A stretch of 64,000 nucleotides of DNA from Yuukianura sp. NJ FZ-2021. Taxonomy: Eukaryota. Position 1 is the first letter of the stretch, and the number at the start of each line of letters is the position of its first letter. The position numbers and the translations under genes were made by a program. The notes beneath the pieces were generated by a model. That model made no database searches and was not told the origin of the DNA. It worked only from the letters and a program-made list of their open reading frames with translations. Location of the stretch: the NCBI GenBank assembly GCA_046563655.1, contig CM102289.1:4836001-4900000 (forward strand). Reading direction: 5' to 3'. Shown here piece after piece: positions 27,783-49,120 of this stretch.

Positions 27783-28230
27783 TCAATTGGCCGAAGGAGA
27801 ATCAATGGACATGTCTATTAAATCTACATCATCTCCGGAGACATTTTCGGCTTGAGTTGGCGTGGCAACGGTCACTGGAGCATGCGACGCAGCTGAAGGA
27901 CGTGCTTGGGTTGACGTGGATCCTGTACCTCCAGTCTGCGCATTACGACGAGAACCTACGATAACAATTTTTTTTAAATAAACATTTGAAAGTTGAAGTC
28001 TTTTGAAAAGTGTAATTTTTAAAATGACCAGTAGCGGTGGAAGCAGTTGAAGGTCGAGAGGTGGTTGTCCCTTGGAATCCACTTCGCTCTTGTCGGATTA
28101 ATTTTTTGGCTTCCTCAATTCCCGTGCAAGCAGCTAGAATTGCTTTCCGTCGATCAGCCTTTTGTACAAATTCAATTTCCTGCATATCTTCTAGCTTCAA
28201 CTCAATCCTCGTAGGACTTCGACGAATCAT
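27783..28230 (-). CDS. CDC26: Anaphase-promoting complex subunit CDC26
   Basis: N-terminus MIRRSPTRIELKLEDMQE matches the CDC26 signature MLRRKPTRLELKLDD; low-complexity tail; head-to-head with SYF2. Confidence 0.8.
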
Positions 28231-28544
28231 AATGCTGTAGTTTAACAAAAACAAATAGCTTTTCAACAATTAGCCATGCAGTAGTTCGGCAAAAAATTAA
28301 CCTAACCTAACTCAATACTGAAATTCATAAAAGTTTCGCATAGATAAGGAAATGTCTTCGCGTGCTCCACTCAAAGCCCATTTCACAGCGCGAAATTTTG
28401 GGTTTGAATTCAGAGAGATTGAAAGAAAATACGCAAATGATAAATGAAATTCAAACTTTAACATTTTTTGCATTTTGAATTGCCTGGTTCTGTTCAGTGC
28501 GTAATTAATCAGTGATTTCTTATCCTTACTTAAATCGATTCAAG

Positions 28545-30331
28545 ATGTCCGACGATGGGAAGGCTAAGCAGGCTGAAAGGATGAAACGGCTCAAGGAACT
28601 TCACTTGAAGAGGGTAATAAGCAAGCTCTAAACATTTACAAGATGCAGTTTAATGATTCAAATCGGTTGATTTTTCACGTTTCTTACCGTATGTCTGTTA
28701 GTCACTGATGATTTGTTTGTAACAGTCGCTTTTCTCGAACTATAATAATCGATAATCCAGAGATGGAAATGCGTTGCACACCATCAGCTGAAACTTACTC
28801 GGATTCTTTTGTTGTAATAGAATGAGGCGCGAAAGTTGAATCACCAAGAAGTTCTGGAGGAGGAACGAAGGGCTAAGCTGCCATCAAATATTGAAGCTCG
28901 TCAACGTCGTGCTCAATGGATTCTGGATGACGAAGAGAAACGTAAAAAATGTACTGACGAAGGATTGGATTACGATCGCATGAAGCTACTGTCTGCCCAA
29001 GCAGATGAAGAAGATAAACTTCAACGTCTTAGAGCCAAGAAACGAAATCCAGATCAAGGATTCAGCAACTACGAAGATGCGACTGTCCGTCAGCACAAAC
29101 GCCTCATTTCCAACTTCAAAGTGGACATGGTTGCCTATGAAAAAGAAAAGGAAGCTCTTGGCGAGGAGACATTTTATGCTGGTCCAGAGTTGTTATGCAA
29201 TAAAGTGAAATATTTCAGAAGTGAAATTTTCACTGAAATAAAGCGCAAAAAAGTGCAATGCAAAAAAAGGTTTGAGTGAAATTAACAACACCATCCTTTG
29301 TTGCACCTTTACTGCACTTTATTGCATTTTTTTCAATTTTGCACTTTTTTGCGTTTTTTTGCACTGCAATGCAAAAAAAGGTAACTGAAAAAAACGTTAG
29401 TGAAAAAAACTGATTTTTCTTGCTTCGCACACTATTTTCCGTTAAATCTTAACGACAAGTTATGCTTAACTGGATTACCGCATTAAAAATTATAGTTCCG
29501 GATGTCGCAGTTAGCTTTTCCACTCCTCCAAGACCGGGGAGACTTACATTCCTTACGTCGGTGTTTAGCCAATTCACCGATGAAATCAGAACTTATGCAC
29601 TAAAAAGGTCAATCTGAAGACTTTCAGATGTGCTTATGTACTGATATACCATTAATGTACTTCACTTAAAGTTAACATATATATGGTACATAAATATTAC
29701 ATACATTGGCATTGGCCGTATTTGACCTTCAGTGACCTCGGCCATGTCAGAGGTTAACATTCCGTTTACCCATTCGAAGCCCCCCTTTAGATAAACCAAA
29801 GAGGACCCCCTTATAGGCGGGAATTTGTTAATCCATTTACTGCTTACATAGCACCTACTAACCGGTTTATTTCACTTTTCATTTAATTTCAGTATTTTTC
29901 ATTTAATTTCATTTTTTGCGGGTGCAATGAAAAATAACCGAAGCAAGGTGCAAAATAACAACACCTTCCTTTGTTGCACCTTTATTGCATTTATTGCATT
30001 TTTTTCATTATTTGCACTTTTTTTCAGTTTTTTGCAGTGCAATGCAAAAAAAGCCCACTTGGTGCAATTTATACAACTCTGTGCTGGTCGGAACACGGTA
30101 GTTCAAGGAGCTCATAAGGATACACCAGAAGCAATCGATCGTATGGTGTCGGATTTGAATAAACAAGTGGAGAAGAGAGAGAAGTTCAGTCGTCGTCGTA
30201 TGCATAACACGGAAGCTGACATTGACTACATCAATGAAAGAAACATGAAATTCAACAAGAAGTTGGAACGATTTTATGGTCAGTACACGAATGATATCAA
30301 GCAGAACTTGGAGCGCGGAACAGCGATTTAG
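28545..30331 (+). CDS. SYF2: Pre-mRNA splicing factor SYF2, interrupted by a transposon in coding sequence
   Basis: [26 protein letters not shown]...[12 protein letters not shown]...[11 protein letters not shown]...[37 protein letters not shown]. Confidence 0.93.
29185..30081. mobile_element. Non-autonomous hAT-type element inserted in a SYF2 exon
   Basis: TIR CAGAGTTGT...ACAACTCTG; perfect 8-bp TSD TGCTGGTC at 29177-29184 and 30082-30089; internal direct repeat of about 100 bp (about 29283-29380 and 29955-30053). Confidence 0.88.
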
Positions 30332-30793
30332 ATAACTATCGCTGAATCCTCGAAAAGTATTTTCGTGCGTTTAAGTTGAATTCCGACTAAATTTTTATCA
30401 ATTTCCAACACGTACATTAGATAACCCTCGGCCGTACTTTTTTTTAGACTATTGTAAAATATTGATTGTTAGGTCGTAATTTTGGTGTTAGTGAAGTGGT
30501 TTTATTAAAACTGTTGCGCAATTCCACGTCCAAATGTACTGAGGACGTCATTCGATTGACCTTTTGTTAGAAATGAAGAAAAAACGCAAGTAATAACTGT
30601 CGTTCGTTTTAATTATACAGAAGAGAAATCTGTGTGTCGTGTTTTACATAAAATAATTTTTAAGTCTGGAGGGATAAAATATAACGTAAAAGTAAATATG
30701 GAATTTAAAGCACCCGAGCGATATAAATCAATGGTTCAGTTTCAGTATTACAAATGAAAGTTAAGCACCCCGCACGCACAGTTTGTTTAGTTT

Positions 30794-33313
<2,520 letters not shown>

Positions 33314-35356: not shown

Positions 35357-36209
35357 TTACCGGAATAATTAATAAGTTTTAAGTGACCCAAAATTCAATT
35401 AATAGTGATCCCATTCGCAAGTGTCACTGTTGCTTTCTTCAACCAACTGTGCCCACTGTAGTAATAACTTGGCATGTCAAAAAATATTCCAGTCATGGCA
35501 ATAATATTTGGGTTGGAAATTTTATTCGTAACAGCGAGGTTGGAAGTGTACATGACGAACTCAACAAGCTTCTCAAATAAAGAATTTGGATCTTTTTGAG
35601 CCAACGACGTTTTCTTTCTCAAACCGAGGTCATGGCGCTTTATAAATTTTTGTAGCCAACCACTGCTGGCCTGAAATTCGCTTGTTTGAAGCACTGCAGA
35701 GTAGACTTCCCTAGCTTTCACACGAATAGATTTGAAGGAGACACTGCTGGTTGGTGCGCTGATTTAAAATCCAATCGTAAACCATTTTGTCTGCTTTTTT
35801 AGAAAGTCGTTTTCTCGAGTCGAAAGCTAAAATTAGTTAAATTTTTACCGATTTTATCCTTTTGCTTCAGCCAACTGAAGACTTGTTTTCGGTGTACTCC
35901 GAAGTGAGCTGCGGTACCATCCGTGGTATTAGTAGAAGCGTACTGAACCACTTTTAACTTTAAAACTGAGATCAAACGATCGTCTTTTAGTTACACCATT
36001 TTTAAAACTTGTATTTAAGTGCTACATTTTGATTTGAGTCAAATTAGCAACATAGAAGTTAAACAGATGATGTCACTTTGCTCTAGGCTCTGCTTTAAAC
36101 TCAAGTTAGCTACCGCGCTTATATCGCAATTTGCCCCCGCTGAAACCGCGCTTGCATTAGAGAATGCGCTTATATTAGAATACGCGCTTGCATTAGAGCA
36201 TTTACGGTA
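35357..36209 (-). mobile_element. Degenerate pogo/Tigger-family DNA transposon (transposase pseudogene)
   Basis: Fragments KRRSFDLSFK..VVQYA...AAHFGVHRKQVFSWLKQ (HTH), FQASSGWLQKFIKRHDLGLRKKT (CENP-B HTH) and IIAM-TGIFFDMP (eroded first DDE block). Frameshifted. End TTTACGGTA with subterminal GCGCTT repeats. Confidence 0.8.
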
Positions 36210-46315: not shown

Positions 46316-49120
46316 ATGTCTCAATTTCTTTTAATTTTCTTGTTCATTTGCAACTGCGTTTCACAGGAAACGGATCTAGTAAGTGAATCGATTAACTTAA
46401 GCCCTTTTAAATTCTAATGTCTTAAATTCAATTTTAAGGTCAAAGGTCAACCATTTCATTTTTGATTTCAGGAAATGTTTCAGATGGAAGGAGTTGACTG
46501 GGAGGTTTTCGAAGGGATTCCGCCGTCAATTGACAAATCTAAATTGGAATCTTTTGAGCTAAGCAAAGTCAATTTGGACACCAACGTTTTACTAAGAGAA
46601 CTAGAGCAGTGTCCAAATTTGAAAACTCTGAAATTGACCAATTTAAAATGGAACGGGCAGTTTGAATCAAAAATTGAGCTTCCGAACCTCTCAAGCTACA
46701 CAGTCGTTCTGCCCGAAAGCAGACCATGCGCATTCAACACCATGACAGACTTCATGTCCATTCTCTTCTTCATTCCTGTCAAAGACATGTCACGTGGACG
46801 GGCCAAAACTTCCTGGATAAAGTCTTGGAAACTGGACAGTCGCTTTGAGTTGATTCACATCGCATGCGCCGTAGAGGAGTCAGACGCAGCAGGTTTCATG
46901 GACGAAAAACCGCGGGCACCAGAAACGCTTGTGCGCATCTCCACTGGACAGGATCTGATTGTCAACAATGTCCATTTTGATCTTCTGGAACATCTTCTAG
47001 GCTATGAAGATTTCATCAAGATTAGCTTCACCAGAAGCTATCTCAATGTCGCCCTTATTGAAAAGCACAAGCTGACTCTCCTTGAACTCACATTGGATAA
47101 CATCGACAACTTGAAATCAGCACGGGAGTTGCGCAATGTTCTCGTTGTTGCCCAGTACGTCAAGTACTTGGAAATGAGTCTCAGAATTCCCAACTTACGA
47201 TTTGACCTCTCACTGTTTGATTCTCGAAGTCTCAAAAATCTGCGCGTTTTTAATCAAAACAACGCTTTAGAAGTTTATGGAAACTCGACTTTTTATAAAT
47301 TGAGTCACATGGAACTCGGAAGTTCCGGGAAAGGAACTATGCTCAACACGGTTCTGGTTGCACCGAAACTCAAAAGCCTCAATTTGTACAACGCCTACTT
47401 TTCTCGCGTCGTGAATGCCAAGTTGGGAATGCGGAGTCTTAAAACGCTGGAAGCGTTTACATGTGGCGAAATGAGTATTGATATCAGTTCTCTACCATCA
47501 GAATACCTCAACCGAGTCGAATTCGAATCCTACTCAAGAGTATTCCAAAGTGAGCAGACATCGTACTTCCCAAAGGTCAAATCTGTCAAGATTGATGCCA
47601 GTTGTAACCTGGACCCGTCATTTGTCAACAACTTTTCAAAAACATTTCGCAACGTACGCAGTGTCATTTTCACGGGTTCAAGAACTACGAAAATCTCTCC
47701 TCAACTTTTCTTTCAAGTTTTGAATACTTCTGCCGTTTATTTCGCAAGTCGATTCAATCGACTTCACTTTCGAAGCCTTGACCCCTCTGAGGTCACTGAA
47801 GATGAAAAGAGGGCGGAACAACTTTTGACGGAATTTGGCGTACCGGAAGACTATTCTCCGCCTGGAATAATTTTGATTCGAGATTCCAAATATGCGCAAT
47901 GGAGTTGGTCTTATGCAAAAATTTCAACATGGGACAGGTTTTTGAATTTCTTTTACCCCATTTCCATTGGGGTAATATGCGCCTTTGGACTGGCGGGAAA
48001 TATTTTGACGACGATTATTTTGTTTAAAAAACCAATTGAGAGTTCAACAACGTGCATTCTACTTTGTCTCACACTCTGTGACTTTGTAATGATTTGTGCC
48101 ACAATTAATCTGATACCGTATTCACTTTCAAATGGATTTCGATACAGAAACAAAATACCGCATCACATTTTCCCGTCTGACCTCCTCTTTCGGCATTTGG
48201 AAGTTGTTCTTTTCTATCCCATAAGAAAAACGGGTAAAAAACAAGAAATTCTTTTAAAATTGGAGTGATTTCCAAAAGAAAATCTTTTTTCTAATTTGTA
48301 GCATACACGGGATCAGTTTACACCACGGTGTTGATAACTTATGAACGGTTCATTGCCGTTGCATTTCCATTGCACGCCAAACGGCTCGTGTCAATCAAGA
48401 GATCCAACATCTACTGTGCCATCATTCTCATATCGGCCGTGATTATCAACCTTCCGCGATGGTTTGAATCTTACAGTTTGTATGACACGGACAAGTCCAG
48501 AGGTCATTTTTCAGAAGTGAGTCTTCTGAGCTCACGTGACTATCGCAAGTACTATCACGGATGGGCGTGGACAATCATCATCTACATCTTACCGGTTGTC
48601 CTAATTGCCAGTTTCAATACAACAATTTACTTCAAGGTATTTAACAGCCGAAGCTGCGCAAATCTCACTTTAGAAAATGTTGGGATTTTCAATTTTTATT
48701 GGTTTATTTTAGGTGATGTTTGCGACAAGAGAGCGTCTTCGAATTAGTTCGAGCGGCGGGAGGGCGCCATCTACAGGCGTGGACATGAACCTGACTCGGA
48801 TGCTGATTTGCCTAGTGCTGGTTTTTGTGGTGCTGAACCTAGTGAGTGCAGCGATTGCACTGTACCACACTTTGTTTGAATTCCACATCGTGTCGTTTTA
48901 CTGGGACAAGGAAAAGGACATGTCAGAGATAGAAGTCGTCGCCTGTCTCCCTGTCCTCATCAACTCCGCTGTCAACTTCATAATCTACTGTGCAATGGGC
49001 CGGAAGTTCAGACAGGAGTTCATCAAACTGTTCCCAAAGAGGCTCGTCGCACTCTGCCGCAAAGCACCACACTCAACCAAGTCACCCAGACCTTCCGCCA
49101 TCTCTACTACACACTCCTAG
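46316..49120 (+). CDS. Signal peptide + LRR-like ectodomain + FMRFamide-receptor-like class A GPCR (about 855 aa)
   Basis: Exons 46316-46378, 46472-48233, 48302-48636 and 48713-49120. CPNLKTLKL / PKLKSLNL repeats, then FGLAGNILT, TGSVYTTVLITYERFIAVAFP, NLPRWFE and INSAVNFIIYCAMGRKFR. Confidence 0.85.

Follow-up and report, generated by a model that had tools for sequence, protein, structure and literature searches.

The SYF2 locus considered here lies in a window of 64,000 nucleotides from Yuukianura sp. NJ FZ-2021 (contig CM102289.1, positions 4,836,001 to 4,900,000, forward strand). It raises the question of whether an 897-bp DNA element within the last coding exon of the gene is an intron being gained or a transposon insertion that simply breaks the gene. 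A first-pass annotation of the same sequence had taken the element as an intron-gain candidate. From the evidence assembled below, we arrive, at a probability of roughly 70%, at a recent insertion of a non-autonomous hAT-like element that is carried by one haplotype, the interrupted copy being most likely a loss-of-function allele or a weak one, with an intact allele to cover for it.

The interrupted gene and its empty site

SYF2 is encoded on the + strand by two exons, the last of which is interrupted by the element. Exon 1 (28545..28613; ATG plus 22 codons, 23 codons in total) ends at the donor AGG|GTAATA and is followed by a phase-0 GT..AG intron of 207 nt (intron 1, 28614..28820). The 23-residue region of exon 1 is joined straight to the start of exon 2 in the relatives P0002-P0004, and the acceptor of intron 1 is found at the same codon boundary in three genomic relatives (L002, L004, L005). 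Exon 2 consists of a part 5′ of the insertion (28821..29184; 121 codons plus one base) and a part 3′ of it (30090..30331), ending with the stop TAG at 30329-30331. The two gene halves match adjoining stretches of the Pfam SYF2 profile PF08231 (154 positions), namely positions 2-80 with an E-value of 5.6e-16 and positions 87-154 with an E-value of 8.4e-32; the C-terminal half also matches the human SYF2 chains of 18 spliceosome entries (E 3.6e-31). From the Pfam matches on both halves together with the human chains, the host gene is identified as SYF2. Removal of the element and one copy of the flanking octamer gives, as had been noticed in the first-pass annotation, a single open frame up to 30329-30331, in which the PF08231 halves adjoin; the intact product then has 224 aa, and the three closest relatives are equally long. 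With the element unremoved, the first in-frame stop is a TGA at 29277..29279, again where it had been placed before, and the predicted product of 175 aa is without the C-terminal half of the SYF2 domain.

Relatives of the gene have neither an intron nor an insertion at this site. BLAST of both halves against the best 120 proteins found the site continuous in 120/120: the two matches are 1-4 residues apart in 119, and in the single exception, with 39, the extra residues are upstream of a still-continuous motif. Metagenome loci of 52-84% identity are continuous over the site in 5/5 cases, and the three genomic relatives that share the intron-1 boundary have no intron in exon 2. The insertion point falls inside the conserved motif ...FYAG|xNT..., and in L002 the octamer TGCTGGTC is present as a single copy at the homologous place. 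The continuity in relatives implies that the ancestral exon 2 was one long uninterrupted exon. Residues derived from the element are covered by none of the best 120 proteins (query coverage at most 88%). Within the same best 120, the closest named SYF2 is that of the springtail Orchesella, with 73.5% identity over both parts, and closer relatives reach 86-94%.

The insertion is polymorphic. Four DNA runs were compared over 28500-30400. Three of them (X1, X2, X4) share a single sample, which may be the source of the assembly, and the fourth (X5) is from a second organism. All four contain the exact empty site, in which 29176 is joined to 30082 and 905 bases (897 + 8) are skipped, the eight letters of ambiguity at the joint being the target-site duplication (TSD) of the element. 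The contigs that carry it measure 961 nt (X1), 104 nt (X2), 7061 nt (X4) and 1380 nt (X5). These contigs are DNA and not spliced RNA, because intron 1 is kept (unspliced in the empty-site contigs of X1, X4 and X5 and in an X2 contig over 28503-28978), because contigs extend up to 403 kb (the longest records among the runs being 403 kb and 275 kb), and because none of the 9 registers for exact removal of the 905 nt has GT..AG borders. The X1 empty-site contig shows 2 differences from the window in 817 aligned bases, 28973 C>T and 30124 A>G, both at synonymous third positions. These linked single-nucleotide polymorphisms (SNPs) mark the empty site as a separate haplotype with the same protein (in X1), not as an excision product. 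An exact empty site present as DNA with linked SNPs means that the insertion is polymorphic, being carried by a heterozygous individual or segregating among pooled ones, and that an intact SYF2 exists alongside. Against its own proposal, and in favour of a simple null allele, the first-pass annotation had set a lack of spliced reads across the element combined with a heterozygous insertion or an intact second SYF2 copy; the latter half of this combination is what the runs show, the empty site being present in 3/3 runs of the one sample and in the 1/1 run of the second organism.

The haplotypes differ further at 29115-29117, which reads ATG (Met) in the empty-site contigs of X4 and X5 and TTC (Phe) in the window. 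The same column holds Met in the nearest relatives and Ile in the closest one, so that the insertion haplotype carries a derived amino-acid change too. The presence of at least three SYF2 haplotypes among the runs of one sample suggests pooled individuals.

The filled state is likewise found in the runs. Contigs of X1 are identical to the element over stretches of 487 and 360 nt, and a 59-nt X2 contig (29155-29213) crosses the left junction with 0 differences, having 30 and 29 letters on the two sides, just under the 31-letter rule. Other X2 contigs break exactly at 29184, as a two-way branch predicts. The contig depth in X2 is 51.9 for the filled junction and 58.8 for the empty one, a hint of similar abundance that does not give an allele frequency. 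The element interior (29332-29971) is without contig cover in X5, which at about 5x contig depth says nothing on presence or absence there. That the genome contains further copies, or sister families, is indicated by contigs in which the element terminus continues into different sequence (loose ends at 29188-29212 and 30081; X4 record 17).

Anatomy of the inserted element

The element (29185..30081) is flanked by two identical copies of the octamer TGCTGGTC, the left at 29177..29184 and the right at 30082..30089, as expected of a TSD. It terminates in perfect terminal inverted repeats (TIRs) of 9 bp, with CAGAGTTGT at 29185..29193 on the + strand and its exact reverse complement on the - strand at 30073..30081, which reads ACAACTCTG on the + strand. 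The TIR starts with CAG, and a CAG-like start may count as a hallmark of hAT elements. The TIR 9-mer occurs twice in the window, at both element ends, compared to 0.61 expected occurrences. Since 14/100 shuffles reach two as well, the 9-mer is weak when taken alone, and it is the TIR together with the identical 8-bp duplication and the restored frame that carries the weight.

Coding capacity is absent. The longest open reading frame (ORF) within the element does not exceed 72 aa, a Pfam search at E up to 1 on 9 element ORFs gave nothing reaching the cutoff and no transposase remnant, and no hAT domain was found by Pfam among 100 ORFs of the window. With its length of 897 bp, the lack of any ORF over 72 aa, its TIRs, a low guanine–cytosine content (35% for the element, 38% for the window) and other copies indicated by contigs, the element has the traits of a miniature inverted-repeat transposable element (MITE). 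A BLAST search of the 64-kb window for further copies returned only the element itself and its internal repeats, and the exact terminal 23-mer had 0 matches in metagenome contigs. Rfam models run over 29100-30200 gave 15 weak hairpin-type matches (best 25.4 bits, gathering threshold 88), which were rejected as chance matches on MITE palindromes.

The structural marks described for hAT elements are an 8-bp TSD, short TIRs (10-25 bp; PMC3942097) and subterminal repeats (PMC3942097, PMC10368747), the last of which are transposase-binding sites in Hermes, Ac and Tol2, with AAG[TC] as the Hermes BED motif (PMC10368747). Subterminal repetition is pronounced in the present element: the hexamers GTGCAA, TTGCAC, ATGCAA and TTGCAT occur 17 times, compared to about 1.5 expected from the window, and TGCAAAAAA occurs 3 times, compared to 0.01 expected. 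For AAG[TC], the left 100 nt has 4 occurrences where 1.1 are expected per strand, and the right has 2, a weak enrichment that serves as a lead only. A module of about 100 nt is present in direct orientation on the + strand, its first copy at 29279..29380 and its second at 29952..30053, with 81% ungapped identity (90% over 103 columns by BLAST). Such a direct module near both ends, on top of the inverted termini, amounts to an asymmetric end architecture. The predicted fold of the element transcript (-245.1 kcal/mol; z -9.49; 0/20 shuffles as good) has TIR and TSD pairing that closes the whole element.

Among characterized transposons, the hAT MITEs of Drosophila (Mar and the BuT2-derived ones), compared by description, are similar in size class, short TIRs, 8-bp TSD, lack of coding capacity and signs of recent mobilisation. 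The BuT2 MITEs are reported with 532-927 bp, 12-bp TIRs and 8-bp TSDs (PMC3942097).

Splice-like motifs and competing explanations

The case for an intron begins with two motifs in the element ends that the first-pass annotation had located correctly. A candidate donor, AAA|GTGAAA, is placed in phase 0 at 29205..29206 (+), and a candidate acceptor, TTTTTTGCAG|, at 30036..30037 (+) follows a T-rich run (14/17 pyrimidines upstream), with the frame open from 30038 to the stop. Splicing between them would take out an intron of 833 nt and add 72 nt, hence the 24 extra codons of the annotation; a second in-frame route that it had described, using GT at 29182 and AG at 30100-30101, would remove 15 nt and so delete 5 aa. 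The donor conforms to consensus at 4/7 positions, with no G at -1 or +5, and is part of the repeated GTGAAA/AAGT subterminal motif; the acceptor, contained in the second copy of the ~100-nt module, is a piece of the repeated TTTTTTGCA/GTGCAA subterminal motif (GTGAAA occurs 4 times in the element, TTTTTTGCA 2 times). Both sites are inside predicted stems. The splice-like motifs are thus accounted for by subterminal repeats, that is, by transposition signals which happen to contain them. In-frame, stop-free GT..AG pairs are plentiful at this locus (33), as they are in dinucleotide shuffles of the element, 1000/1000 of which have at least one (median 11). All 33 routes alter the protein, the 25 shown ranging from -84 to +288 nt. 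In the absence of any exact GT..AG removal, whatever splicing took place would alter the conserved motif. Two AATAAA hexamers, one at 29199..29204 (+), 15 nt inside the element, and another at 29237, could moreover constitute a possible premature poly(A) signal.

The scenario to which we assign the rough probability of 70% is as follows. A non-autonomous cut-and-paste transposon of hAT type would have landed recently in the last SYF2 coding exon of the haplotype that was assembled. Read unspliced, the interrupted allele would encode 175 residues, the N-terminal 144 from SYF2 and 31 from the element. The most conserved C-terminal 80 residues would be lost, making the allele most likely a loss-of-function or weak one, whose tolerance would be due to the intact allele covering for it. 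Cryptic splicing from the sites in the element ends may remove most of the element in some transcripts, as in maize Ds, and could not restore the original protein. That such partial in-frame splicing rescues function is unlikely.

Several observations weigh against this scenario, in one or another of its parts. As regards the superfamily, the assignment derives from structure. The 9-bp TIR is one base under the 10-25 bp range (PMC3942097), its identity past the perfect 9 bp is gapped only, and the TSD does not fit nTnnnnAn, the preference of the Ac/Hermes group, since its second letter is G and its seventh T. That preference is reported for Hermes, and other hAT groups differ (PMC10368747, PMC3942097). 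For these reasons we call the element hAT-like by structure, which is less than proven membership. As regards allelism, the contigs fit a heterozygous individual or a pool, and an allele or a very recent duplicate locus, alike; and the filled haplotype is not rare in the reads, since the assembler chose it. As regards splicing, a crude match count ranks 29205/30037 first among the 33 in-frame pairs. A pair as good was found in 1/1000 dinucleotide shuffles and among 0/7 pairs of the reverse orientation. The downstream frame is open over the last 230 nt of the element, and one inferred local donor (from an ab initio intron model) is GTAAAA, without G at +5, so that weak-looking donors such as GTGAAA may work in this organism.

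The splicing observations are at the same time what speaks for the strongest competitor, namely that the element is an intron at birth, spliced via GT 29205/AG 30037 or another in-frame pair to leave a full-length, functional SYF2 with about 24 more residues, and therefore near-neutral and capable of becoming fixed. The predicted TIR/TSD pairing, by bringing the ends together, would assist it; transposon-derived introns are documented in many eukaryotes (PMC9860276, PMC12130899), and the hAT elements Ds and Ds1 are reported to supply splice sites near their ends (PMC5395267). The insertion is, however, polymorphic with an intact allele present, exact removal is impossible, and the 24 extra residues would come to lie inside the ...FYAG|xNT... 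motif that is continuous in 120/120 relatives. The donor lacks G at both -1 and +5, both sites are buried in predicted stems, and the motifs have their explanation in the subterminal repeats. The length of 833 nt also compares poorly with the introns inferred in the window, mostly 68-102 nt by ab initio guesses, most of which it exceeds about 8-12-fold (SYF2 intron 1: 207 nt). We consider an intron at birth unlikely on this balance. Slightly less likely still is its specific form, a segregating, very young intron in which the MITE would be spliced out via AAA|GTGAAA and TTTTTTGCAG| to give a working SYF2 with 24 additional residues. Of the intron-gain reading, the part that stands is a non-autonomous hAT-like element in a SYF2 coding exon with in-frame candidate sites in its ends; the part naming an introner or an intron being born finds no support in a polymorphic insertion with 0/9 exact registers and a candidate intron of 833 nt.

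Maize Ds and Ds1, spliced from exons, are the closest precedent for how such an element could behave. The likeness lies in a non-autonomous hAT-type element within a coding exon, whose inexact removal would alter the protein, and in candidate donor and acceptor motifs, which here lie no more than some 20-50 nt from the ends; for Ds and Ds1, a bias toward supplying donor and/or acceptor sites near the termini is reported (PMC5395267). The difference is that the host is an animal (arthropod-like) and that the splice sites here are candidates read from sequence. Ds1 is reportedly, after Wessler, alternatively spliced from exon sequences. In sequence, the element is not known to be related to Ds other than by the CAG with which the TIR starts.

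A second explanation would have the insertion fixed at its own locus and the empty-site contigs originating from a recently duplicated second SYF2 locus or from precise somatic excision. Contigs assign no locus, and the three different empty-site haplotypes among the runs of one sample could be accommodated in this way. Against it, intron 1 and both flanks are shared, with just the two differences in the X1 alignment, and the empty site is present in the second organism too. The linked SNPs speak specifically against an excision product of the window haplotype; moreover, hAT excision normally leaves footprints, and the site here is exact. We judge this explanation to be clearly improbable.

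Less probable again is a true introner family, a MITE lineage that would routinely land in exons and be spliced, with the SYF2 copy as one recent example. Introners, known from Micromonas, Aureococcus and many other eukaryotes, are similar in being MITE-like DNA elements with TIRs and TSD within coding sequence. In surveys, their TSDs are 3-9 bp and TIRs are found in a share of families (PMC9860276), and they occur as many near-identical copies annotated as spliced introns, often with one splice site taken from the TSD. Such a family would agree with the contigs that indicate, in both the sample and the second organism, further loci where the terminus recurs, and with the GT-containing and T-rich/CAG motifs in both orientations of the ends. 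The present element is, by contrast, a single copy in the window and polymorphic; the terminal 23-mer is unmatched in the metagenome contigs, and, unlike in introners with TSDs (PMC9860276, PMC11282704), the duplication does not complete an exact intron in any register. The main texts of PMC9860276 and PMC12130899 do not mention hAT or arthropod, nor does that of PMC12130899 mention Collembola or springtail; copepods appear once. The MITE-derived non-canonical introns of Fritillaria borealis and euglenids show a different likeness: they too are MITE-like and lie within genes, their inverted ends pair at the RNA level and their borders carry TSD-like repeats (PMC11282704), comparable to the predicted TIR/TSD fold described above. 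A specialised or altered machinery excises them in spite of their non-canonical ends, whereas the 905-base skip observed here occurs in DNA contigs that keep intron 1 and so represents an allele, not RNA processing.

An assembly artefact, in which a chimeric read or mis-assembly joined the element into SYF2, is hardly credible: in X1 and X4 it is indeed the empty form that has the better support as a long contig, but the two junctions bear the mark of real transposition, a perfect 8-bp TSD, the X2 contig just under the 31-letter rule crosses the left junction without a difference, and the X2 contigs break exactly where the element begins.

As it stands, the insertion is an ordinary event, in which a recently active MITE family has entered a coding exon while an intact allele remains. 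It points to a hAT-type family currently or recently mobile in an arthropod-like genome, and it is a warning for annotation, since SYF2 is broken on the reference haplotype. The locus also offers a clean case for asking how often transposon ends serve as splice sites, with the SNPs at 28973 and 30124 tagging the insertion haplotype in transcripts. If in-frame splicing were true, a segregating first step of transposon-driven intron gain would be seen in an animal, within a spliceosome gene and before fixation, which would be a rare chance.

Surroundings of the locus

A PAPS synthase gene at 30797-33155 (-), with exons for APS kinase, PUA_2 and ATP-sulfurylase, lies tail to tail with SYF2 and ends about 470 nt past its stop; its inferred introns measure about 75-81 nt. 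On the other side, an ORF at 27946-28269 (-) gives a weak match to CDC26, an APC subunit, that is just below the cutoff (E 8.5e-05; 23.8 compared to 24.5 bits); it stands in head-to-head orientation to SYF2, some 275 nt off the ATG, and the two may share a promoter region. A second, unrelated DNA-transposon relic is found at 35398-35763 (-) in the form of a Tc5/pogo transposase helix-turn-helix fragment (E 8.9e-09).

The interval 1980-24014 is gene-dense, comprising COP9 subunit 3, phosphatidylserine decarboxylase, a Ras-family GTPase, a cytochrome P450 and GFAT (GATase and two SIS domains); an AAA_28 protein, a polysaccharide deacetylase and Nup133 are found further along the window. At 46466-48265 (+), an open frame of 600 aa, for which Pfam gave no match, is located directly upstream of a rhodopsin-family seven-transmembrane exon (48295-48744); the two are likely separated by a 68-nt intron, and the frame may represent a large N-terminal region of a G-protein-coupled receptor.

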